From Escherichia phage Phi1: a stretch of 64,000 nt of DNA. This document shows, in pieces, positions 1,877 through 56,586 of this stretch (the first letter of the stretch is position 1; every line of letters begins with the position of its first letter). The position numbers were made by a program, and so were the translations under genes. The stretch lies in the sequence record EF437941; one strand, given 5' to 3'. The notes below the pieces were generated by a model. The model saw only the letters and a list, made by a program, of their open reading frames with translations, ran no database searches and had not been told where the DNA came from.

Positions 1877-3676
1877 ATGCTAATGTTTAATAACTCCGTT
1901 AAATGGTTTACCGGAATTGTAGAAAACAGGGAAGACCCATTAATGCTGGGGCGTGTTCAGGTTAGGATTCATGGTATACATCCCTCGCTATCCGCACACG
2001 GTGACATTCAAGGTCTTCCAACCGAAGATCTATTATGGATTACGCCAGTACAAGATATTACAAGCGCGGCGATCTCCGGTATAGGTCAAAGCCCTACTGG
2101 TATTGTTGAAGGTTCAATGGTATTTGGTTTGGCTTTAGATGAACGTTATTTAAACTGCGTTATTCTGGGTACTATTGCCGGACAATATACAGAGAAACCA
2201 CTCACTACAGAGGGTTTTTGCGACCCTTCTGGTGCATATCCTCGTTATATTGGTAATGATGTTAATATTCTTGCTCGTGGCGGTATTAACCCAGAAACCG
2301 GACAAACAACAAAACCTGATAGTGTCTATATTCGAGATGAAAACACTGGAGTTGCAGTAAATCCAGACGACGAGCCATTAGACCAAATTCCGGTTGATGA
2401 TAATCCTGATTTTACAATCGAAAAAATGCTGCGGGGCGATGAGGGATATCGCGAGAAATGGTATCTTGATTCAGAAGGATATCCGACAATAGGCATCGGG
2501 CATTTGATCATTTATAAGAAAACCAGTGATCTGGGTATTATCAATAATGAACTTTCTAAGCTGGTAGGGCGTGAAGTTACAAACGGAAGACTTACCGCCG
2601 AAGAAGTTAGTAAAGTATTTGCCGACGATATAGAAAAGACTCGTCGTGATATGCGCAAACATCCACGAATTGCACCTGTCTATAATAAATGTAATGCCTC
2701 ACGTCGTATGGCATTAGAAAATATGGCGTTTCAAATGGGTGTTGGTGGATTGGGTAAATTTAAGAATAGTCTTGCTGCGATGTTAGCGGAAGAATGGAAA
2801 CAAGCCTATGATGGATTACGTCAATCGGTATGGGCTAACCAAACTCCAGGACGCTCCAGCCGTGTTTCTAAAATTATTTTAACTGGTAACTTAGAATCAT
2901 ATGGCGTAATTGCTCCAAAGAAAGAGGAATCAATTTCTGATGATCCGCGAGCACGTTTGAGAAATGCCCGTATTGCTGCCTATAAGACGCAGAGAGCAGA
3001 AGAAGACCCAGAAGCACCGTTTACCCCACAAGACACACGAATCATGTTTAAAGAGCCTAAGAGTTCGTATTCCGCAAGGTATCCATATAACCATGTGTAC
3101 GAGTCAGAGAGCGGTCATATTATCGAGATTGATGATACTCCTTCTCATGAGCGATATCATCGTAAACATCCTTCGGGTACATTTGAAGAAACCAGACCGG
3201 ACGGAACGAGGGTAGAAAAGATTGAAGGTGATGATTATCTAATCGTTAAACAAGGCAGGAAAGTAAACGTTAAGGGTAATTTGCAAGTTGTTGTTGAAGG
3301 TGACGCGCAAGTTTATTATATGGGTAATGTGATGCAAACCGTTGATGGTAACGTCACTGAATTTATTCGTGGTAATGTTAATCAGACCGTTGAGGGTACA
3401 GCTAATATGCATGTTGTAGGTGATGTTACCGCTCAGCTTGACGCTAATTTAACGGCTAATGTCAAGGGTAATGCTGAATTAATGATCGAGGGTAACACTA
3501 CAGAGACAATTAAAGGTAACTATGATTTAACCGTTGAGGGTAATTTTAATATGACCGTCAATGGCACTAAATCAGATCAGGTTAATGGTGACTGGTCCCG
3601 TAATTGTGGTGCAAGCGTTAAAGATATTGCATCTGGTACAGTTAAAATTGATGGTAGCCGTATTGATCTTGGGTGA
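1877..3676 (+). CDS. 5: baseplate hub subunit and tail lysozyme gp5
   Basis: 599 aa; T4-lysozyme-like motif YLDSEGYPTIGIGH; C-terminal VxGxxxxx beta-helix repeats; synteny. Confidence 0.9.
   Translation: MLMFNNSVKWFTGIVENREDPLMLGRVQVRIHGIHPSLSAHGDIQGLPTEDLLWITPVQDITSAAISGIGQSPTGIVEGSMVFGLALDERYLNCVILGTIAGQYTEKPLTTEGFCDPSGAYPRYIGNDVNILARGGINPETGQTTKPDSVYIRDENTGVAVNPDDEPLDQIPVDDNPDFTIEKMLRGDEGYREKWYLDSEGYPTIGIGHLIIYKKTSDLGIINNELSKLVGREVTNGRLTAEEVSKVFADDIEKTRRDMRKHPRIAPVYNKCNASRRMALENMAFQMGVGGLGKFKNSLAAMLAEEWKQAYDGLRQSVWANQTPGRSSRVSKIILTGNLESYGVIAPKKEESISDDPRARLRNARIAAYKTQRAEEDPEAPFTPQDTRIMFKEPKSSYSARYPYNHVYESESGHIIEIDDTPSHERYHRKHPSGTFEETRPDGTRVEKIEGDDYLIVKQGRKVNVKGNLQVVVEGDAQVYYMGNVMQTVDGNVTEFIRGNVNQTVEGTANMHVVGDVTAQLDANLTANVKGNAELMIEGNTTETIKGNYDLTVEGNFNMTVNGTKSDQVNGDWSRNCGASVKDIASGTVKIDGSRIDLG
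3290..3640 (+). repeat. gp5 C-terminal beta-helix coding repeats
   Basis: Translated repeats of the form V-E/D-G-N-x-x-x-T/N (VEGDAQVYY, VDGNVTEF, VEGTANMH, VKGNAELM, IEGNTTET, VEGNFNMT, VNGTKSDQ). Confidence 0.8.
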
Positions 3677-3684
3677 GGTAACTA

Positions 3685-4251
3685 ATGGTTGAAATTCTTC
3701 CGATGAGTTCAAAATTGGAGGATATCAGCGAGCGAGAAATCTTTGAGGTGGTGTTCTCTTATAAAGCAACTCCACCAGATGCAAATACCACATACACGAT
3801 TAAAGAGTTTAAGATCAGCGAGTATCGCCCTAATAAGGGCGTTACCGTTGAAGAAACTAAAATATCTGGTGAGTATAGGGATAGTTTTTCGCTTGGCGCG
3901 GATTCTCTTAAATATATAACGAAAGATAGAATTAAAAAATCTGCCGGAAGTTTTGATGATTTACCAGATCCAACTACCGCAGATCTATATTATTTTAACG
4001 CTCCTACACGTCTACAGGAGGTTTATACTTATAAAGTAACCCTAACCTATATCCAATCTGTTTCAGAGTCTTCTGGTGGTTCTGGTGAAGGAAATAGTGG
4101 TGGTTCCAATAGCCGAGAGGGTGCTGGTGAAACTAATCCTCCTCCGGTAGTAACCGAACACACAATAGAGAAAGTTTATACTCAAACCGTTTTTGGAAAT
4201 TGGGATGTGTGGGCGCAGCAACTAAGAGATTATGTACATAGGGGTGTTTAA
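3685..4251 (+). CDS. hypothetical protein in the gp5.1/5.3 position
   Basis: 188-aa ORF with RBS GTGAGG; Gly/Ser-rich segment [17 protein letters not shown]; lies between genes 5 and 5.4. Confidence 0.5.
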
Positions 4252-4544
4252 TGGCTGGATTATCCTACGATAAAGCTAAAACTACAGGGCACGGAAACTA
4301 CCCACCTACTGTAATTAATGCAACTCAATCTAAGGTATTTGTTGAGGGTATCCCTGTATTAGTCGAAGGAGACCCAATTACACCACATACAAAAACAACA
4401 AAGCCTTATGATACACACGGGGGAACTACGGTCGCCAGTACCCCGAAAGTATTTGTTACCGGAAAGAAAGCAATTCAAATGGCAGATCGTATTAGCTGTG
4501 GCGATACCGTCGCTATGGCATCACCGAAGGTATTCATAAAATGA
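4251..4544 (+). CDS. 5.4: PAAR-repeat spike tip protein gp5.4
   Basis: 97 aa, same length as T4 gp5.4; coupled start/stop junctions with neighbours. Confidence 0.7.
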
Positions 4545-6445
4545 CAAAGCAAAAGATTACACAAATTCCTGATATTTTTAATGCTGCTACGTTTGATGAA
4601 ATTAAAAGCGCATTAACAGACTGGATGAGAAACCAGGAAGAATTTAAAGATTTTGATTTTAATGGTGCTGGTATTAACGTATTGATGGACTTGCTCGCAT
4701 ATAACACTCTGTATATTCAGCAATTCGCTAACGCCGCGCTATATGAATCTTTTATCAGAACGGCAATTAAGCGTAGTTCAGTTGTTCAAGCCGCGCAAGA
4801 TTTAGGATATTTGCCAGCAAGTAAAACTAGTGCATCGACTACAATTATGTTGCACGTAACACATCCGCGAAATCCGGCAAGTATTCGAATCCCACGAGGA
4901 ACTAAATTTATTGCAAGTGTGGATCGCCAGACGTCTTATCCGTTTGTGACTACCGAAGACGTTGTGAGCGTTTTAGGTTCAAATGGTTTATATACGCCTA
5001 TGCTTAAAGTCGCACAAGGTCGTATTGTTCGTACAGAAATGTTATTTGATCCGAAGAAACAAATTCTGATCCGCGATCCTGATATTGACCGCGCTCAGGT
5101 TAAATTGTGGGTAGACGGTGCTGAATGGAAAGACTGGACGCGAGAAAGCATTGTTAATGCAACTGGCGCTAGTAATATTTTCTATATGCGTGAAACCGTA
5201 GACGGTCATACAGAAATCTTCTTTGGTGAAGGTGAATCAACTTTATCTGCTGCTGGCGGGGCGCTGGAAGCAAATTATATTGGTGGACTTAAGCCGTCAA
5301 CTGGTGCTAATATTGTTATCGAATATATTAGCACTAAAGGCGCGGAAGCAAACGGTTCAGTTAATTTTACATATGCGGATACCCTTGCATCTATCTCTAT
5401 TGTTAAAATTATTGAGAATCCGACAAATGATCGTGATTATGTCGGTGCAGATGGTGGTGGTGACCCTGAATCAATCGAACGTATCCGTGAACTTGCTCCG
5501 GTAATGCGTGAATCTCAGCGTCGTTGTGTTACTGCTTCTGACTATGAGGCTTTTGTATCTAGCCGTTTTGGTAGTATTGTTCAGGCGGTACAATGTTTCA
5601 CCGACCGAGAAAAACCGGGTTATGCTTTTGTTGCTGTTAAGCCTAAATCTGGCTTGCGTTTGACAACTGTTCAAAAAGAAGATATGCGGGATTATCTGGC
5701 AAAATATAATCTTGCCCCTATCACGCCGAGCATCATTGACCCTAACTATCTGTATATTAAACAGAATATTAAAGTTTCCTATTCAATCAATGACTTGTCA
5801 GAATCAGAGCAGTGGTTGCGCGGTGCGGTTATTGATCAGATTGATGCATATTATACCGACGAAGTGGAAATTTTTAACCAGACCTTTAGTAAGTCTAAAA
5901 TGCTTGCTCGTATTGACAAAGCTGATGTATCTGTGATAGGTTCTAGTGCAGAAATAGAGATGGTGCGAGAGATCGACAACTTCTATAAAGCGCCTATGGC
6001 TGGAATCAAGTTTTTAAACCAGTATAAGAGCGGAATCAAGTCTAGTTCATTCAACTTCGAAAAGGACGACAAGCAATATCCGATCCATTATGTAAGTACA
6101 GAAATGAACAAAGAATCCGGTTTAGCTAAATTGCTGGTTGGACCTTTCCCTGTTGATTCTACAATCGCTTTACCGCACTATTCCGGCACTGATTTTGATA
6201 AAGAGGTTATCGACGGTGCGGACCTATACTTTGAGGTTGGAGAGGTTCAGCATTATGACGACCTTATTTCATGGGATCTGGGTAAACTGAATATCAATAG
6301 CGATCGCTTTACTGGTTCATATATTGAGTTGACAGCTAAACCGATTGCTGATAACATCTTTACTAAAGACGGTTCTTTGATCGTGTTTGAAAACGATCTC
6401 CGTCCTCAGTACACAACTATTAGTCTGGAGGCAATTGCTCAATGA
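4541..6445 (+). CDS. 6: baseplate wedge protein gp6
   Basis: 634 aa; overlapping junctions with 5.4 and 7; synteny. Confidence 0.85.
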
Positions 6446-9528: not shown

Positions 9529-10516
9529 TGAAAATAGTGTGATCTATCGCTCAATCATTACTAGTAAATTCAGAACGGAAAAACTTCTGAATTTCTATAA
9601 TTCTGTAGGCGATGGGGCAAATCAAATTACAATTTATGGAACGTTTGGACGTTCGGAGCCGTGGTCAGAAAACGAAAAAGAGGTGGGCTTTGCCCCACCT
9701 TATCCGACCGATTCAACGGCTGGTGTTGTTGACATGTGGACCCATATGATGGGGGCGGTTAAGATTAACAAATCACTTCTTGATGCGGTTATCCCTCGTA
9801 AAGATTGGGGTGATACCGGACAGGATAACCCGCGCACATTCTTTATCAATGACATTGTTGTTGTCAACTCAGCACCATATAACCGAACTGATGTTGGTAG
9901 CGGCTGGATGGTGTATCGCGTAACCGATGTTCCTGATCGCGGTTACTGCTCGATTTCAAGCATTGACGCTAAAGTAGAGTGTTTGAAGTTGGGCGGAAAG
10001 TGGACACCCACTCATGAATCAATTGCGCCACCTGTAGGAAAGGGCGATTCTATTGATATGGGTGATGGGTATCGTTGGGAATATCTGTACACAATTCCAC
10101 CTGATGCGGCGATCAACCGTTGCACCAATGAACATATTGTTGTTCCATTCCCGGATGAATTGAGACAAGATCCGGCGCGTTGGGGCTATGACAATGTGAT
10201 CACCTGGTATAATGACTATAATCTGCTTTATCGGCTGAAAGTAGTAACTTTGCGTTTTCAGGCTTATATGGACTCTGCGCAATTCCCAACTACCGCGTTA
10301 GTGGGTAATACTGGTTTCCGTCAGTTAAGCATTATCCTTAACCCATTGGAAAAGAAAGCACGCCCTAGCGATCCAGACGTTAAAGCGGTTCAAGATAAGT
10401 ACCGTCCGCAAGACTTAGAGCCACACTCAGGAGAAATGATCTACATGGAAAACCGACAACCTATCGTTCGGTCATTAGATCAAACAGAACTTGTTTCTGT
10501 ATTGTTTGAGTTCTAA
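9521..10516 (+). CDS. 8: baseplate wedge protein gp8
   Basis: 331 aa (T4 gp8 about 334 aa); synteny. Confidence 0.8.
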   Translation: MANENSVIYRSIITSKFRTEKLLNFYNSVGDGANQITIYGTFGRSEPWSENEKEVGFAPPYPTDSTAGVVDMWTHMMGAVKINKSLLDAVIPRKDWGDTGQDNPRTFFINDIVVVNSAPYNRTDVGSGWMVYRVTDVPDRGYCSISSIDAKVECLKLGGKWTPTHESIAPPVGKGDSIDMGDGYRWEYLYTIPPDAAINRCTNEHIVVPFPDELRQDPARWGYDNVITWYNDYNLLYRLKVVTLRFQAYMDSAQFPTTALVGNTGFRQLSIILNPLEKKARPSDPDVKAVQDKYRPQDLEPHSGEMIYMENRQPIVRSLDQTELVSVLFEF

Positions 10517-10530
10517 GTGTATGATTTAAA

Positions 10531-10557
10531 AGCCAATTCGAGAGAGTTGGCTTTTTC
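10531..10557 (+). terminator. rho-independent terminator after gene 8
   Basis: Hairpin AGCCAA-loop-TTGGCT followed by TTTTT. Confidence 0.6.
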
Positions 10558-10567
10558 TATTTTGGGT

Positions 10568-10597
10568 GTTTACAATCTTGTCTGGTAAAGGTATAAT
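10568..10597 (+). promoter_or_regulatory. sigma70-type (early) promoter for the methyltransferase island
   Basis: GTTTACA, 17-18 bp spacer, TATAAT; about 35 nt upstream of the 85-aa ORF. Confidence 0.6.
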
Positions 10598-10629
10598 GCT
10601 CACATCTAAACAACGGAGGAGGATAAATT

Positions 10630-11207: not shown

Positions 11208-12046
11208 TGGCACGACTTTCTAAACAAGAACAAAAATTACATAACCGAGCAATGGAGTTGATTAATTCAGATCGTCCATTGACATATGAAGAAAAAGAAT
11301 TTTGCTATAATAACTATCATGGCGATGGGCTAGGTGGTTCCGGTGCATTCTTTACCCCAGAAGGGCTTGCATGGGATTTTACCATCGATGCACATTGCAC
11401 AGGAAAAGTATTAGATCTTTGTGCTGGGATCGGTCGCTTATCTTTTTGTATGTTACATCGTTGTAAGCCAGAAAAGATCGTATGCGTCGAACTCAATCCA
11501 GAATTTGCGCGGATTGGCAAGCGACTATTACCGGAGGCAGAATGGATCACCAGCGATGTATTCGAATTTGAGTCAAACGAAAAATTCGATGTGGTGATCA
11601 GCAATCCACCCTTCGGGAAAATCAATACAACCGACACAAAGGATGTATTTGAGTACACTGGCGGCGAATTTGAATTTAAGGTTATGACATTAGGCCAGAA
11701 GTTTGCCGATGTAGGTTATTTTATTGTTCCTTCTGGTTCCGCTGGTTTTGCCTATTCCGGCAGACCTTATTATGACGGGACCATGAAGTCTAATAAATAT
11801 CTAAAATGGAGCAAACAAACTGGTTTGGTGACTTATGCCGGATGTGGGATCGATACATCAATCTATCGCGATGAATGGCATAGTACCAACGTTTTAACAG
11901 AAGTGGTTGAGGTTCGGTATTACGAAAAAGAAGCCGTAGAAGCTCCTAAATCACGTCCTAACGAACAAATAGAAGAAAGTAAGGAGATTACCTTACCGAA
12001 ACAGGAAAGCGAGTCTGGGACGCTCTCAGATTTGTTTGACATTTAA
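11207..12046 (+). CDS. SAM-dependent methyltransferase, amino-MTase (NPPF) type, putative DNA N6-adenine methyltransferase
   Basis: Motif order FFTP (X) - VLDLCAGIG (I) - VISNPPFG (IV), typical of gamma-class amino-methyltransferases; 279 aa. Confidence 0.6.
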   Translation: MARLSKQEQKLHNRAMELINSDRPLTYEEKEFCYNNYHGDGLGGSGAFFTPEGLAWDFTIDAHCTGKVLDLCAGIGRLSFCMLHRCKPEKIVCVELNPEFARIGKRLLPEAEWITSDVFEFESNEKFDVVISNPPFGKINTTDTKDVFEYTGGEFEFKVMTLGQKFADVGYFIVPSGSAGFAYSGRPYYDGTMKSNKYLKWSKQTGLVTYAGCGIDTSIYRDEWHSTNVLTEVVEVRYYEKEAVEAPKSRPNEQIEESKEITLPKQESESGTLSDLFDI

Positions 12047-12051
12047 TTATA

Positions 12052-12077
12052 AGCCGTCCTTGTGGGCGGCTTTTTTG
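12052..12077 (+). terminator. rho-independent terminator after the methyltransferase
   Basis: Hairpin AGCCGTCC-loop-GGGCGGCT followed by TTTTTT. Confidence 0.6.
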
Positions 12078-12086
12078 TATGTATTT

Positions 12087-12094
12087 TATAAATA
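12087..12094 (+). promoter_or_regulatory. late promoter TATAAATA upstream of gene 9
   Basis: Exact TATAAATA 28 nt upstream of the gene 9 ATG. Confidence 0.6.
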
Positions 12095-12121
12095 ATACAT
12101 CATAACATGAGGAATTAAACA

Positions 12122-12976
12122 ATGGCACAAGTTCCAAAGAAAAGAATAGACACAGGTACTGTCGGCAATCCATCGACTGGCGATATCTTATATGATGGCG
12201 GTAATAAAATTAACGATAACTTTGATTCAATATATGACGCATTTGCTGATCAGCGGTTTAAAGACGTAGACCACGGCGTGGGAAGAATGGTTATTCATGC
12301 AACCGGATACTATCAGAAGCATCCACGTCAAAGCTACGCTGGTTCCGCTGTTGAGATTGGGAGTCTACACGATATCGATACAACTCAAGGCGCACTTATT
12401 GCTATTCTACCTAAAGCAAAGGTTGGCGAGGGTGTTGTATTCATAAATAGTAACGGTAGCCTTTCAACGACTACACCGCTCAATATTCGAACTCAAGCAG
12501 GTGATTCTATTAGCGGGTATTCCGGTGATGCTACAATAACACAACCATTTTCAAAAGTCACTGTTTGGTGTACTGCCGTTGAAGGTAGTCGCGTAACATG
12601 GCGATTGGGTATCGAAAGTATGTTTACCGATACAACAACGCCATTAGATAAAACAGTTAACGTAACTGGAGTAGCAACAAACGTTGCTATTGCCGCAAAA
12701 ACAGAATATGTTTCCATCAAATTATTAACTACCGCTAGCAATACATCCGGTTCAAAAATGCGTTCAAGTGAAACGCTACTGATGATTGATTCTAAAGCCG
12801 GAAAAGTTTATGCGACGGAATATGCAGTTTTGCAGAAGACAGAAGATGAACTATACACGGTTCGTTATTTCATCGGTTCCGGCGATAAAGTATATGCAGA
12901 GTATAAGGCTACTGGCGAAAATATTCGTTTAGCAGTTAAAGCCGTAGACACTATTAAAATCGGGGTTGCTACATGA
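12122..12976 (+). CDS. 9: baseplate wedge / long tail fibre connector gp9
   Basis: 284 aa; N-terminal KKRIDTGTVGNPSTGDILYDGGNKIN resembles T4 gp9; synteny. Confidence 0.85.
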   Translation: MAQVPKKRIDTGTVGNPSTGDILYDGGNKINDNFDSIYDAFADQRFKDVDHGVGRMVIHATGYYQKHPRQSYAGSAVEIGSLHDIDTTQGALIAILPKAKVGEGVVFINSNGSLSTTTPLNIRTQAGDSISGYSGDATITQPFSKVTVWCTAVEGSRVTWRLGIESMFTDTTTPLDKTVNVTGVATNVAIAAKTEYVSIKLLTTASNTSGSKMRSSETLLMIDSKAGKVYATEYAVLQKTEDELYTVRYFIGSGDKVYAEYKATGENIRLAVKAVDTIKIGVAT

Positions 12977-51913: not shown

Positions 51914-52126
51914 TTATAATGCACCATCGAGCAATTGCTCTAAGGTGTATCCTGAATAGTCTTTTTCAATCAGGGTATATTTTCCTACTCGTTTAATACA
52001 ACCGCGCATTTCAACGTATTCTGCGTAGTTGATGGTACGAGTTGTTCCATCTTCCAGTAATGCAGTACCGATTTCGTTAATGCGGTCATAAGTTACGTCG
52101 GTAATGATGATTTCGATGTTAGCCAT
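51914..52126 (-). CDS. hypothetical early protein (70 aa)
   Basis: ATG with RBS AAGGAG; begins MANIE like the 83-aa ORF at 54252..54503. Confidence 0.5.
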   Translation of the reverse strand: MANIEIIITDVTYDRINEIGTALLEDGTTRTINYAEYVEMRGCIKRVGKYTLIEKDYSGYTLEQLLDGAL

Positions 52127-52201
52127 TTGATACTCCTTAGTAGTTCGTTTCGGTATGGGTGTATTATGATATACACCCTCTGTTATGTCAACAACTTTTT
52201 A
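52127..52201 (-). promoter_or_regulatory. early promoter cassette 1
   Basis: On the - strand: A-run, TTGACA, 17 bp, CATAAT, conserved leader CCGAAACGA, RBS. Confidence 0.6.
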
Positions 52202-52378
52202 GAACATTTTTGAAATTAATTTTGCTTTGATTTCGCAGAGAACACCTAAAGATTTCTCGTCACCCGCTTTTGCTGCTTCTGATTGCATTTTTGAAATGGC
52301 TTCAATGTCAGTGCAATTATAAGCCGCTTGAACTTTAGCGATTGCGATGATTGCCGATTCGATGGTTAAGTGTTTCAT
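52202..52378 (-). CDS. hypothetical early protein (58 aa)
   Basis: ATG with RBS AGGAGA; below the ORF-track cut-off. Confidence 0.45.
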
Positions 52379-52447
52379 GTTTGATTCTCCTTTCGTTTCG
52401 GTATGTGTGTATTATGGGGGATCACCGATCCCCCTGTCAACAACTTT
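52379..52447 (-). promoter_or_regulatory. early promoter cassette 2 (GATC palindrome in spacer)
   Basis: TTGACA, spacer GGGGGATCGGTGATCCCCC, CATAAT, conserved leader. Confidence 0.6.
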
Positions 52448-52966
52448 TTAGTTATTTTTTAATTGCTCATCTTGCAATAGGGAAATCACATGCTGGCGAT
52501 GTTCTTCCGATTGAGGGACACCGAAAAAGTTTGTTTTGTAGAAATACTCTAATCGGTCTTCTCGTGTGCTCTCTTCCATCATGATCGCGGGTAGTCCGAG
52601 ATTTCGGAAACGTCGCTTTTCTGCTGGCGTAAAATCACTGTAATACAGCATAGAATCATCGTTACCAGCAATGCTAAACTCATCATTCATGAAGGAGAAT
52701 ATTGCGTTTAAACGCTGTTTACCGTCCACGATTTCGATCTCATAGCGAGAGCCATCATCAATCTTAGCCATTGCGATAGCACCAACCGGAAAATCATTAA
52801 TCAGGTTTTCGATAAACATACGTTTGTTTTCGGTGTCCCATACCAAAGGACGCTGATAATCTGGGTTCATGTTGATATAGCCATCTTCTAACCACGCCTC
52901 ATAAACAGAGATGACAAAGTTTTTAGTATTGGTATAGTAACGGCGTTTAGGCGTTAAACGGTTCAT
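52448..52966 (-). CDS. DUF262 / ParB-like nuclease-NTPase domain protein
   Basis: Start set to ATG at 52966 (RBS AGGAGA); PDYQRPLVW ... FIENLINDFPVGAI ... IVDGKQRLNAI matches the DUF262 signature (pFQR..W / DGQQR). Confidence 0.65.
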   Translation of the reverse strand: MNRLTPKRRYYTNTKNFVISVYEAWLEDGYINMNPDYQRPLVWDTENKRMFIENLINDFPVGAIAMAKIDDGSRYEIEIVDGKQRLNAIFSFMNDEFSIAGNDDSMLYYSDFTPAEKRRFRNLGLPAIMMEESTREDRLEYFYKTNFFGVPQSEEHRQHVISLLQDEQLKNN

Positions 52967-52967
52967 G

Positions 52968-53300
52968 TTATAGTCTCCTGAATGGATCATCACGTAAATC
53001 AATATCTTTTAAGAACTCATCCCATGAATGGCGGATATTGTTCTTAATTCTCCAGATAAGCGCAGGGATTGAACGCTCTCCCATCTGGAAGTAAGGATCA
53101 TATGATCCGTATGCCCAATATGCTACTACAATTCCACAATCAGCGCAATAATATTCTATTTCACTTGCTGGCGACCAAAGTCCATCAATATGATCGGTGA
53201 TCCTGCTTTCGATGTTATGGCTATGGCAATCAGGGCAACGGATGCAATGACCTTGTTTATCGTAATTTGACGTTAGCGAATACTTAAACAATCTCATCAT
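52968..53300 (-). CDS. Zn-ribbon protein (110 aa)
   Basis: CIRCPDCHSH ... YCADCG Cys/His clusters; translationally coupled to neighbours. Confidence 0.5.
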   Translation of the reverse strand: MMRLFKYSLTSNYDKQGHCIRCPDCHSHNIESRITDHIDGLWSPASEIEYYCADCGIVVAYWAYGSYDPYFQMGERSIPALIWRIKNNIRHSWDEFLKDIDLRDDPFRRL

Positions 53301-54013
53301 AGATCCTTATTGGCTTCAAATACTGCCTTTGCGAATCCTCGCGGGGTAAGTGACCTGATAGTCTTTGTTCTGGTTCCTTTCCCGCCTAGCTTAGAATGCT
53401 GTTTACTGTACCCTTTATTAATATGCAACGGTTTCTTTTCTGGCATTATAAAGCCTTGTCCGGTCCATAAGCAAGTCTTTTTCGGGTACATATCACGGGC
53501 GGCAATATACTCAGGAAACGTAGGATGTTTATCATCTTCCGGCAAATAACCGCCATATTCCCACGGATGGAACATGTAATCAGGCTTACGCCACATACTA
53601 GAGATAACGCTTACAGGATTCTCTATCATGTAGGGAACTCCTAGCCATTCACCCAAATAAGCGGTTATTTTAGCTGCCCGTACATCATGAACTTGAATCA
53701 ATGGTCCTTGTTCTCGTTTCTTTCGTTCAAAGTGTGCAGCGCCACTAACAGCTAAATTGGTGCACGGTGGGAATGCAAATATAATATCCGGTTTCCCCCA
53801 TTCAAGGTCCATTGCTCTTTCCAGCCAGTTCAAATCAATCCAGGTGTTTACATAAGTAATGTTTGGATGTTCAAATCTGGTATTATACTTTTTGTATGTA
53901 CCGTGGTCGGCGTCATCCGCATTAAAGCAGACTACCTTATGACCTGCTTTAGCCCATTCTAGCCCCATTATCCCCGATCCGTCAAAGTTGCAGAATATTA
54001 ATTTTTGTTTCAT
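53297..54013 (-). CDS. C5-cytosine methyltransferase-like protein (truncated, 238 aa)
   Basis: Motif I FCNFDGSGIMGLEWAKAG (FxGxGG), motif IV FAFPPCTNLAVSG (PC), motif VI MIENPVS (ENV-like), C-terminal SLTPRGFAKAV; no obvious target-recognition domain. Confidence 0.55.
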   Translation of the reverse strand: MKQKLIFCNFDGSGIMGLEWAKAGHKVVCFNADDADHGTYKKYNTRFEHPNITYVNTWIDLNWLERAMDLEWGKPDIIFAFPPCTNLAVSGAAHFERKKREQGPLIQVHDVRAAKITAYLGEWLGVPYMIENPVSVISSMWRKPDYMFHPWEYGGYLPEDDKHPTFPEYIAARDMYPKKTCLWTGQGFIMPEKKPLHINKGYSKQHSKLGGKGTRTKTIRSLTPRGFAKAVFEANKDL

Positions 54014-54255
54014 ATACGACCCTTTAACCCAGCACAGATTTTAGTCGGTTCTTTACCGTGCCACATTAAGTAAAGTCCGTTAATGCGACCTTGTTTTGTG
54101 TGTGATTCTTTTCTGATCTTCTTATAGTGTCGTGCTTCCTCAACTGATTGTTTAGAATACCAATCATAAAGGAAGAGGCACAAAGGCCAACCATTAGCGG
54201 CCTTAATGCAGTTATTAAGAAATTCCTTATTGCGTTTAATTAATTTTCTTTTCAC
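54010..54255 (-). CDS. hypothetical protein (81 aa)
   Basis: GTG start overlapping the upstream stop; coding status less certain. Confidence 0.4.
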   Translation of the reverse strand: MKRKLIKRNKEFLNNCIKAANGWPLCLFLYDWYSKQSVEEARHYKKIRKESHTKQGRINGLYLMWHGKEPTKICAGLKGRI

Positions 54256-54503
54256 GCTGCCCCCATTGGTTTGATAGTAACAGAATCTAAAAGACCTTTG
54301 TTAGCCAGTTCGCGGCAAGTTTTCAGATCCGTAACTTCCCAGCCAGCCGCAATCAGGTTATCGATGAGGCTGTTAGCTACTTCCTCGCTCATGAAAGAGC
54401 ACTGTTTGCCGATGGTGTAGCGCACACGATGTAATTTCAGTTTACGGAAGCCTTTAACGTTCAGGTCTTTAGCGATTTTCTTTGCGGTTTCGATGTTAGC
54501 CAT
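54252..54503 (-). CDS. hypothetical protein (83 aa), first gene of the operon
   Basis: ATG directly downstream of early promoter cassette 3. Confidence 0.5.
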   Translation of the reverse strand: MANIETAKKIAKDLNVKGFRKLKLHRVRYTIGKQCSFMSEEVANSLIDNLIAAGWEVTDLKTCRELANKGLLDSVTIKPMGAA

Positions 54504-54587
54504 TGTTTGATTCTCCTAAGTGGTATCTCGTTTCGATGGTTGTATTGTAGGGGGAGTTATCCTCCCCTGTCAACACTTTTTATAAAA
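54504..54587 (-). promoter_or_regulatory. early promoter cassette 3
   Basis: TTGACA, palindromic spacer GGGGAGGATAACTCCCCC, conserved leader and RBS. Confidence 0.55.
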
Positions 54588-54755
54588 TTATTTGTTAATT
54601 TCTGGTGCGTTGCTAGGATAGTAACCTTCTTTAACTCCGAGGTATTTCGCAACCATCCCTACAATCTTCTGTGCTACTACAATGTCAAATTTCAGATAAT
54701 CTTCGCCGTGGGTTTCAATGATATATGCTTCACATGCTGCTTTAGTCTCGAACAT
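54588..54755 (-). CDS. hypothetical protein (55 aa), copy 1 of a duplicated gene
   Basis: MFETKAACEAYIIETHGEDYLKFDIVVAQKIVGMVAKYLGVKEGYYPSNAPEINK; paralogue at 57863..58030. Confidence 0.55.
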   Translation of the reverse strand: MFETKAACEAYIIETHGEDYLKFDIVVAQKIVGMVAKYLGVKEGYYPSNAPEINK

Positions 54756-54831
54756 TTTGATTCTCCTATTTCGTTTCGGTATGTGTGTAGTATAGGGGAT
54801 CTCCCGACCCCCGTCAACAACTTTTTTAAAA
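54756..54831 (-). promoter_or_regulatory. early promoter cassette 4
   Basis: TTGACG, spacer GGGGTCGGGAGATCCCC, conserved leader. Confidence 0.55.
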
Positions 54832-55113
54832 TTATTCGTGATTAGTTTCGATGTTGTGCATTTTGCACCAGTTCAACCAATCACCCATATCTTGATAGTT
54901 GATGCTTTTATCTGCTGCCATCGTTTTTGTCTTGATACCCATATGTGCGTTATGAGTAAGCATTTTTACAGTGAACTCAATTTTATCGCCTTTAGCTTTA
55001 ACATCAACCAGTTTGGTCCACTGGCTACCAGCGCCGCGAATGTTCATACCAACGATGTTTCCGATGTATGCTTCTTTGTTTTTCAGGATTTCGGTTGCTT
55101 TGATGAATTTCAT
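54832..55113 (-). CDS. hypothetical early protein (93 aa)
   Basis: ATG with RBS GGAGAA. Confidence 0.5.
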   Translation of the reverse strand: MKFIKATEILKNKEAYIGNIVGMNIRGAGSQWTKLVDVKAKGDKIEFTVKMLTHNAHMGIKTKTMAADKSINYQDMGDWLNWCKMHNIETNHE

Positions 55114-55183
55114 TTTTGATTCTCCAGTTCGTTTCGGTATGGGTGTATTATGCTATGTTCTTACTTTGGTGTCAACAACTTTT
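55114..55183 (-). promoter_or_regulatory. early promoter cassette 5
   Basis: TTGACA, 17-19 bp, CATAAT, conserved leader. Confidence 0.55.
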
Positions 55184-55453
55184 TTAGATATTTTCAGAAA
55201 TAAATTTTAAAACTTGACGTAAATGTTTCTCATCTTTGATAGTCGCCGGAAGTTCTTCTTTTACTTCCTGTGCAAGATAGATATTTCCGTTCCAAGTGAA
55301 AGATCCGTCTTTGTTTACGCGATAGCTGAACATCCACTCGCAATCATTTTCGATTTCATATACACACAGAAGGGTGTAATCGTTAAAGCTATTGATTTCA
55401 AGGTCGAAGCCGTGACGTTTTGCAAAGTTGGTAGTGGTTTTAGTCAGTGCCAT
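55184..55453 (-). CDS. hypothetical early protein (89 aa)
   Basis: ATG with conserved leader and RBS. Confidence 0.5.
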   Translation of the reverse strand: MALTKTTTNFAKRHGFDLEINSFNDYTLLCVYEIENDCEWMFSYRVNKDGSFTWNGNIYLAQEVKEELPATIKDEKHLRQVLKFISENI

Positions 55454-55545
55454 TGTTTGATTCTCCTAAGTGGTATCTCGTTTCGATGGGTGTATTATGC
55501 TATAGGTCGGATCTGGTGTCAATTCTTTTTTTAAAATTTTATGCA
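55454..55545 (-). promoter_or_regulatory. early promoter cassette 6
   Basis: TTGACA variant with conserved leader. Confidence 0.5.
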
Positions 55546-55938: not shown

Positions 55939-56226
55939 TTAAAACAGTCCTTCATGTACACCGTAGTAGAGTTCGTCGCTGATAATTTCATTAATGCGAC
56001 GGTGTGCATATTCCTGATTTGCGAAGTTGTCAGCAAGTTCTACTTTAGTTTCGCCGTCATGAGTCCATTTAGTGATAACTTTACCATCTGCAAATTTGAA
56101 GTTGAACTCTTTAGCTACTGCATCGCGTACCAGACGTGCAAACTTATTGTTGCGGATTGCATTGTCGGTTTCGTGTGAAGCGTGAGCAAATTTGTTAACT
56201 TTCAGAGTGATAGTGATGTATGCCAT
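55939..56226 (-). CDS. hypothetical early protein (95 aa)
   Basis: Shares the AKEFN.K segment with the ORF at 59265..59576. Confidence 0.5.
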   Translation of the reverse strand: MAYITITLKVNKFAHASHETDNAIRNNKFARLVRDAVAKEFNFKFADGKVITKWTHDGETKVELADNFANQEYAHRRINEIISDELYYGVHEGLF

Positions 56227-56307
56227 AATTTGATTCTCCTAGTTAGAAAGTGTATCTCGTTTTGATGGGGATATTATGCTATATCCCCGATCCGGTGTCA
56301 ACACTTT
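56227..56307 (-). promoter_or_regulatory. early promoter cassette 7
   Basis: TTGACA, spacer with GATC, conserved leader. Confidence 0.55.
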
Positions 56308-56586
56308 TTATAAAATAATTTTTTGATATTTTTCTATGATGTTCGTGTAAGTCACATCAACCGCTAGCACCGTTGCTTCGAATCCACCGTTTAGCCAATG
56401 GCTATGATCATGGTCGTGAAAGAAACCTAGACCAGTACGAAGACCTTCTTTATATTCTGCGCGTACATTCAGTTTGTCGTCGATAAACAGATAAAACCAT
56501 GAATTTTTACTAGGATTGATGATACAACCTTTCAGATTAGGGAGAATATCACGACTAAGAATAAACTTATCACCTACTTTGAACAT
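56308..56586 (-). CDS. HxHW-motif small protein (92 aa)
   Basis: Start set to ATG at 56586 (RBS GAGGA); HDHDHSHW ... VLAVDV. Confidence 0.55.
   Translation of the reverse strand: MFKVGDKFILSRDILPNLKGCIINPSKNSWFYLFIDDKLNVRAEYKEGLRTGLGFFHDHDHSHWLNGGFEATVLAVDVTYTNIIEKYQKIIL

Follow-up and report, generated by a model that had tools for sequence, protein, structure and literature searches.

The 64,000-nucleotide stretch of Escherichia phage Phi1 analysed here (EF437941; hereafter the window) carries, on its minus strand at positions 52448–54503, a compact block of five genes that includes a small C5-cytosine DNA methyltransferase-like gene and a gene for a DUF262 protein. Our analysis indicates that this block is likely an early unit in a hyperplastic region, composed of independently acquired accessory genes, among them a complete methyltransferase of the phage mini-Dcm family and an unrelated stand-alone DUF262 protein. 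Such a mosaic is the best reading because the genes show no linkage outside the genus Krischvirus and because blocks bounded by promoter-early stem-loop (PeSL) cassettes are known to shuffle. A preliminary description had singled out the region as the best candidate in the window for an undescribed system, combining the methyltransferase and the DUF262 protein, which the results below do not support.

The genes of the block and the two cassettes that flank it are arranged as follows, from the upstream end:

54506..54595, minus strand: upstream PeSL cassette, with a -35 box TTGACA from 54573, the stem-loop GGGGAGGATAACTCCCC and a -10 box TACAAT to 54544
54252..54503, minus strand: open reading frame (ORF) of 83 residues, homolog of RB49 ORF190c
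54010..54255, minus strand: ORF of 81 residues with a GTG start, homolog of RB49 p189.1
53297..54013, minus strand: predicted mini-Dcm C5-cytosine DNA methyltransferase of 238 residues, homolog of RB49 ORF189c
52968..53300, minus strand: zinc-ribbon protein of 110 residues, homolog of RB49 ORF188c
52448..52966, minus strand: stand-alone DUF262 protein of 172 residues, homolog of RB49 ORF187c
52391..52460, minus strand: downstream PeSL cassette, with a -35 box TTGACA from 52440, the stem-loop GGGGGATCGGTGATCCCCC and a -10 box CATAAT to 52411

All five minus-strand ORFs of the preliminary description were thus recovered at the same positions. The DUF262 protein counts 172 residues from its ATG, and would count 184 if translation started at an upstream TTG. 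Coupling by 4-bp overlaps of start and stop codons, claimed for the whole series, holds for three junctions (GTGA, ATGA and ATGA) but not for the junction between the zinc-ribbon and DUF262 genes, where TAA-c-ATG leaves a 1-nt spacer. The 3.2 kb around the block are 98.6% identical to phage GEC-3S, in which the same five genes and promoters at both cassette positions are annotated, and 57 phage records match at 95–99% identity. Judged by this similarity, the window comes from a Krischvirus, that is, an RB49-like pseudo-T-even coliphage. The five genes are kept together in about 55 Krischvirus genomes.

Each of the two flanking cassettes contains a sigma-70-type promoter with 11/12 matches in our promoter scan and, embedded in it, a GGGG...CCCC stem-loop. 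In the upstream cassette, these elements are followed by a conserved leader and a ribosome-binding site ahead of the 83-residue ORF. Promoter matches within the block were weaker than the two flanking ones, and the single early promoter cassette that had been placed ahead of the five genes was indeed found just upstream of the first of them. The block forms one early transcription unit lying between two PeSL cassettes, the upstream cassette serving as its early promoter and the downstream one closing the unit and starting the next (a 59-residue ORF). At least seven copies of the cassette occur between 52.1 and 56.3 kb; beyond the flanking pair, they are located at 52142–52223, 54756–54849, 55126–55207, 55456–55544 and 56215–56323. 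The upstream cassette belongs to the repeat families D3, D5, D8 and D9, and the downstream one to D4, D6 and D7.

PeSLs have been described in RB49 and phi1 as combining a strong early promoter with a terminator (Arbiol et al. 2010, PMC2839356; PMC4122927). In hyperplastic regions, they border ORFans that are not essential, and recombination between PeSLs inserts, deletes or exchanges modules (PMC2839356). In particular, the PeSL of the ORF190–191 intergenic space, the counterpart of the upstream cassette of our block, recombines to give mini-circles, which were demonstrated for the ORF190–195 interval (PMC2839356). The present block resembles these modules in being flanked by two cassettes with the same elements (TTGACA, GGGG...CCCC stem-loop, -10 box and conserved leader) and in its position, since it corresponds to RB49 ORF187c–190c and adjoins the mini-circle interval. 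It differs from them in holding five genes, where one or two are usual, and in including two genes that, with their recognisable domains, are more than pure ORFans. Because PeSL regions shuffle ORFans, a compact arrangement downstream of a single early promoter is to be expected for unrelated accessory genes (PMC2839356). Gene coupling, which the preliminary description had pointed out, is therefore the norm for PeSL-bounded blocks of this type.

Linkage of the genes was examined outside Krischvirus. The matching phage records numbered 1,523 for the methyltransferase, 301 for the DUF262 protein and 291 for the zinc ribbon, and samples of each were listed. Among 80 viral loci with a methyltransferase gene of 53–100% identity, viewed over ±5 kb, the Krischvirus locus has both other genes, and neither a DUF262 nor a zinc-ribbon gene is found near the methyltransferase in any of the 79 non-Krischvirus loci. 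Conversely, 31 DUF262 neighbourhoods were inspected (27 viral contigs plus RB43, KP15, Mm5 and GEC-3S), and the three from Krischvirus have the partner genes; in the 28 others (RB43, KP15, Mm5 and 25 of the contigs), neither a member of the mini-Dcm family nor a zinc ribbon was detected near the DUF262 gene. An additional scan of the DUF262 loci with regular expressions for methyltransferase motifs was crude and of low sensitivity, having missed a gene of phage DP described below, and is weak evidence. In the genus Mydovirus, the two genes were found in separate modules of two related genomes. In VLCpiM5b, the mini-Dcm gene lies in the replication module (primase/helicase, DNA polymerase) with no DUF262 gene within 9 kb; in DP, the DUF262 gene belongs to a distinct early cluster, and the 28 kb examined around it contain no mini-Dcm gene. 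Likewise, neither a methyltransferase nor a DUF262 gene is found within 5 kb of the zinc-ribbon homologs of JenK1 and wV8. The three genes that the preliminary description had joined into one module were thus found together solely in Krischvirus.

Two sets of neighbours were considered as candidate partners and rejected. In Klebsiella phage DP (L118), a gene annotated as a putative DNA methyltransferase (11611–12294, 227 residues) precedes the DUF262 gene (10084–10617) by 1 kb on the same strand. This protein has no Pfam match at E ≤ 0.001 and no match to the HMM (hidden Markov model) of the mini-Dcm family, and it carries an IITNPPY motif; NPPY is typical of amino-methyltransferases. It is therefore not a mini-Dcm. 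The conserved neighbours of the DUF262 genes in RB43, KP15 and Mm5, considered as zinc ribbons or as the nuclease partner of a split enzyme, fall into phrog_7472, phrog_10932 and phrog_15764; none of them reaches the cut-off of a Pfam family or has a significant counterpart in the window.

The 238-residue protein carries motif I (F10-x-G12-S13-G14), motif IV (P82-P83-C84) and motif VI (E131-N132-P133) of C5-methyltransferases, as well as a K178-K179 pair and a C-terminal segment, LGGK...IRSLTPRGF, with IRSLTPRGF as a helix. The residues of motif I, PPC, ENP, KK and this segment are invariant or nearly so in 40 homologs of 58–65% identity. The match to the Pfam family DNA_methylase (PF00145) covers motifs I–IV only and stays below threshold (15 bits against a cut-off of 22, E = 0.017); 19 of the 40 family members match PF00145 at E ≤ 0.1, the best at 1.3e-6. 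On the other hand, the match to phrog_757, annotated as DNA methyltransferase, is very strong (E = 9e-91). No match was obtained in the NCBIfam search, nor against PDB sequences with either the single sequence or a family profile. The lack of a solved structure and of a Pfam or NCBIfam model reaching its cut-off explains why the gene is labelled hypothetical in many genomes.

The AlphaFold2 model of the protein is confident, with a mean predicted local distance difference test score (pLDDT) of 91.3 and a predicted template modelling score (pTM) of 0.90. Its top structural matches are all DNA C5-methyltransferases, with Foldseek E-values of about 3e-8 for DNMT3B and DNMT3A, so that the initial assignment of fold and motifs was right and the protein is predicted to have a C5-methyltransferase fold. 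About 75 residues separate the region of the ENP strand from the C-terminal IRSLTPRGF helix, which means that the large target-recognition domain of canonical enzymes, between motifs VIII and IX, is lacking, as had been noted. Compared with canonical bacterial and eukaryotic C5 DNA methyltransferases (M.HhaI, M.HaeIII, E. coli Dcm, DNMT3A/B catalytic domain), the protein is about 100 residues shorter, falls below the Pfam gathering cut-off and has no sequence match to a solved structure; the bacterial C5-methyltransferases matched by structure measure 320–420 residues.

Such a small size is typical of the family and recalls the small recognition region of DNMT3 enzymes. A word-indexed search returned 7,321 homologs, mostly of 225–250 residues, and an exhaustive search gave 1,159 clusters at 50% identity, whose representatives nearly all have 200–260 residues. 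The family is present in 1,523 phage records, including T1-like Drexlerviridae, Klebsiella phages of about 50 kb, rV5- and phAPEC8-like myoviruses and Mydovirus, and the protein is 97–100% conserved within Krischvirus. As nearly all members are about 220–250 residues long, the 238-residue protein is full length, and the term truncated, used for it at first, does not apply. By sequence, it is a member of this widespread phage mini-Dcm family (phrog_757).

A close relative of the protein has been studied experimentally. In a preprint on phage K42 (bioRxiv 10.1101/2023.08.16.553469), all mutants escaping retron Ec86 were found to disrupt a 711-bp dcm gene. Expression of K42 Dcm was toxic solely in the presence of the retron, and liquid chromatography–mass spectrometry revealed 5-methylcytosine (5mC) on the retron multicopy single-stranded DNA. 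The C82A/E128A/K175A/K176A mutant was inert, with loss of 5mC, and the effect needed a CCWGG site (same preprint). A later paper treats the K42 Dcm/Ec86 result as established. In our alignment, K42 was represented by the BASEL phage KarlJaspers (Bas06), which has 95.4% genome identity to it and a dcm gene of the same 711 bp, annotated as Dcm-like C5 cytosine methyltransferase. Over its whole length, the 238-residue protein shares 56% identity with the KarlJaspers protein (bas06_0055, 236 residues; E = 2e-92), and C84, E131, K178 and K179 correspond, by this proxy, to the four residues mutated in K42.

Because of this identity and of the alignment of the mutated residues, site-specific C5 methylation of DNA is the most likely function, and the protein is probably a complete and active S-adenosylmethionine (SAM)-dependent DNA C5-cytosine methyltransferase. 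The two enzymes share their length class, the catalytic Cys, Glu and Lys-Lys residues, a DNMT3-like predicted fold and a location in the early or replication region of a phage genome. They differ in that one belongs to a T4-type Krischvirus and the other to a T1-type siphovirus, and in that activity, CCWGG specificity and triggering of Ec86 (Eco1) are reported for K42 and putative here. Overall, a role in DNA modification is likely for the methyltransferase alone, but this part of the earlier proposal does not extend to a combined system with DUF262. Nor is the enzyme undescribed: reports on this common family of small phage Dcm proteins already cover both 5mC formation on DNA and its sensing by retron Ec86.

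If catalysis proceeds as in other C5-methyltransferases, Cys84 (PPC) would attack C6 of a flipped-out cytosine, Glu131 (ENP) would protonate N3, and SAM would donate its methyl group to C5. The place of the large target-recognition domain would be taken, as in DNMT3 enzymes, by a short insert at about residues 140–215. The expected outcome is 5mC at few, specific sites of the phage DNA during replication and, as a side effect, of the host DNA; for the K42 homolog, the reported site is CCWGG. This methylation may in turn block cytosine-methylation-sensitive restriction.

The 172-residue protein matches Pfam PF03235 (DUF262/GmrSD_N) well above threshold (E = 5e-20; 72.9 bits against a cut-off of 33.2). 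Its motifs are NPDYQRPLVW, VDGKQRL and NFFGVPQSEEH, of which YQRPLVW, VDGKQRL and NFFGVPQS are invariant in homologs. It also matches phrog_1583 (E = 2e-53, positions 9–183 of a 417-position profile) and the PADLOC models NsnA (6e-21) and PD-T4-2_A (4e-12). A profile built from 22 sequences of its family matches BrxU (7p9k, E = 4e-8) and SspE (6jiv), and the three motifs are all included in the alignment. The DUF262 assignment is thus firmly borne out, even though NCBIfam gave no match to the protein. The word-indexed homolog search yielded nine proteins, and the AlphaFold2 model made from these nine sequences is poor (pLDDT 55.6).

The QR, DGQQR (here DGKQR) and N..G motifs are shared with type IV enzymes of the GmrSD family, namely BrxU (7P9K), Eco94GmrSD and SspE. 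Unlike them, the phage protein has neither a DUF1524/HNH nuclease domain nor a long helical linker. No nuclease family was found in any of the five proteins with Pfam, NCBIfam or PADLOC, and the next features 3' of the DUF262 gene are the PeSL cassette and then the 59-residue ORF, so that no nuclease gene is adjacent. Since it stands alone, with 172 residues and no nuclease domain, the protein cannot by itself be a restriction enzyme. From its motifs, it is assigned as a stand-alone GmrSD N-terminal domain, of the ParB-like nucleoside triphosphatase type, and may act as an autonomous nucleotide-binding domain of ParB/GmrS type. It is very unlikely, in our estimation, that it serves as an undescribed counter-defence factor, for example as a decoy or dominant-negative partner disabling the GmrSD/BrxU-like DUF262-DUF1524 enzymes; in that case, its position beside the Dcm gene in Krischvirus would be explained by 5mC making the phage DNA a substrate for these enzymes.

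Short stand-alone homologs (160–180 residues) occur in RB43, in KP15-like Slopekvirus, in Morganella phage Mm5, in Mydovirus DP and in jumbo-phage contigs. Among the 50 of the 301 matching records that were listed, the Straboviridae with a stand-alone DUF262 protein are of pseudo-T-even type (Krischvirus, Pseudotevenvirus RB43, Slopekvirus KP15 and Morganella Mm5), and no Tequatrovirus or Mosigvirus appears. A short stand-alone DUF262 protein therefore recurs in T4-type phages, the lineages of RB49 (Krischvirus), RB43, KP15 and Mm5, which we take to lack hydroxymethylcytosine.

Several observations weigh against a mosaic with an active methyltransferase, and two of them concern the independence of the DUF262 protein. 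First, the coupling of the five genes and their joint conservation across Krischvirus are compatible with a functional link, although they are not evidence for one. Second, a 16-kb metagenomic contig (L031) contains a canonical C5-methyltransferase gene (2195–3424, minus strand; 410 residues, PF00145 at 207 bits) and, 1.4 kb away and divergent, a gene for a 400-residue protein with DUF262 only (4857–6056, plus strand; PF03235 at 43.5 bits). This is the sole other C5-methyltransferase/DUF262 neighbourhood found among the 28 loci. As a single case for which no baseline was computed, the pairing may be due to chance.

These two observations would agree with an alternative in which the methyltransferase and the DUF262 protein, possibly with the zinc ribbon, constitute a functional pair. 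In one version, 5mC would guard the phage DNA against classical restriction and at the same time expose it to GmrSD-type enzymes, which the nuclease-less DUF262 protein would poison or decoy; the homology of this protein to the N-terminal domain of BrxU/GmrSD fits such a role, BrxU being reported to cut 5mC-containing DNA (PMC13390438). In another version, the DUF262 protein or the zinc ribbon would provide DNA targeting to a methyltransferase that has no large recognition domain. However, in E. coli the K42 homolog is active on its own (bioRxiv 10.1101/2023.08.16.553469), and coupling of unrelated ORFs is the rule in PeSL regions (PMC2839356). In addition, the genes fail to co-occur outside the genus (0/79 and 0/28 loci), and Mydovirus keeps them in separate modules. 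Altogether, we regard a functional pair as unlikely and favour the mosaic, in which the zinc ribbon and the two ORFans would be further independent accessory genes.

The other contrary observations concern the activity of the methyltransferase. The K42 evidence is that of a preprint and applies to a homolog at 56% identity. Moreover, the predicted target is scarce: CCWGG, the site of host Dcm and EcoRII, occurs 24 times in the window, as compared with 53.4 ± 6.4 times in dinucleotide-preserving shuffles (all 100 shuffles had at least 24 sites). One of the sites (53840–53844) is within the methyltransferase gene itself. By our arithmetic, 24 sites represent about 0.2% of the cytosines. Finally, no modified nucleoside was detected by high-performance liquid chromatography (HPLC)–mass spectrometry in the virion DNA of Krischvirus TB34, and this DNA was not cut by BrxU (PMC13390438). 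Therefore, the methyltransferase may be inactive, poorly expressed or provided with too few sites. Given the scarcity of CCWGG, a 5mC level of this order could have gone undetected or unreported in TB34.

The TB34 result brings in another possibility, that of a protein with the C5-methyltransferase fold that produces no meaningful methylation of virion DNA, either because it is inactive, because its substrate is RNA or tRNA (Dnmt2-like) or host DNA, or because it transfers a group other than methyl. Four points make this rather unlikely. The catalytic and SAM-binding residues are invariant in the family and present here, the protein is 97–100% conserved in Krischvirus, the most similar homolog with experimental data produces 5mC in DNA (bioRxiv 10.1101/2023.08.16.553469), and sparse sites (24 CCWGG per 64 kb) could explain the negative HPLC analysis.

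A related phage, SAP, raises the question of cytosine hypermodification. SAP (L116) is 99.96% identical to TB34 (L117), and its DNA holds 5-hydroxymethyldeoxycytidine (5-hmdC) and glucosyl-hmdC without any known pathway genes (PMC13390438). In the 3.8-kb region examined, SAP has a 79-bp PeSL tandem duplication (L116 678–756) immediately after the DUF262 gene, and two indels of a single T distinguish the intergenic spacers of the two genomes; the SAP annotation calls the PeSL duplicate a 117-bp ORF. No other difference was found there: the five coding sequences are identical in both phages, so that the modification difference does not map to them. The absence of pathway genes and the position of the duplication could suggest that the block participates in SAP hypermodification, through C5 methylation after replication, with subsequent oxidation and glucosylation. 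We consider this extremely improbable. Unmodified TB34 has the same five proteins, and Krischvirus genomes are reported to contain no hydroxymethylase or glucosyltransferase genes (PMC13390438; a dioxygenase, also required, was not searched for). Besides, the mini-Dcm family is found in about 1,500 phages not known as hypermodified, and site-specific methylation could not yield the reported "full complement" of modified cytosine (PMC13390438). A probably active Krischvirus Dcm, as predicted here, would nevertheless bear on the SAP/TB34 difference, as well as on BREX (bacteriophage exclusion), type II and type IV restriction and retron Ec86.

Concerning the remaining genes of the block, the 110-residue protein has a CxxC...CxxC zinc ribbon and matches phrog_2993 (E = 7e-34); its matches to zinc-ribbon models of Pfam and NCBIfam are weak. 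Its homologs, known from Nonagvirus JenK1 and Felixounavirus as well as other phages, lie in the former two among small early genes. The 83-residue ORF belongs to phrog_14908 (unknown function, E = 1e-58) and has no Pfam family above cut-off. Its residues 12–75 give a weak PADLOC match (E = 3e-5, 20 bits) to positions 722–785, in the C-terminal part, of RT_UG35, a model of reverse-transcriptase defence proteins. The 81-residue ORF belongs to phrog_7065 (unknown function, E = 4e-38). No homolog of it was detected in a 150-kb Krischvirus-like contig (L008, IMGVR_UViG_3300045988_033703; 3727–4667), where the homolog of the 83-residue ORF directly abuts the methyltransferase gene. Hence, gene-level variation exists within the block.

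Two further observations concern the sides of the block. Upstream, RB49 ORF192c (477 bp, between ORF191c and ORF193c) has no equivalent in the window, where the PeSL cassette at 54756–54849 is the sole separator between the corresponding neighbours, a 55-residue ORF (54588–54755) and a 93-residue ORF (54832–55113). ORF192c excises as a PeSL mini-circle, and its absence has been reported for phage phi1 (PMC2839356). On the downstream side, a 70-residue ORF (51914–52126, phrog_10679) is about 48% identical to proteins of T1-like Drexlerviridae. In these phages, the homologs are located about 3 kb from the mini-Dcm gene and on the same strand (L004 36951–37229, L087/L089 8596–8832, L100 6287–6565), and T1-like phages and Krischvirus may share a pool of accessory genes.

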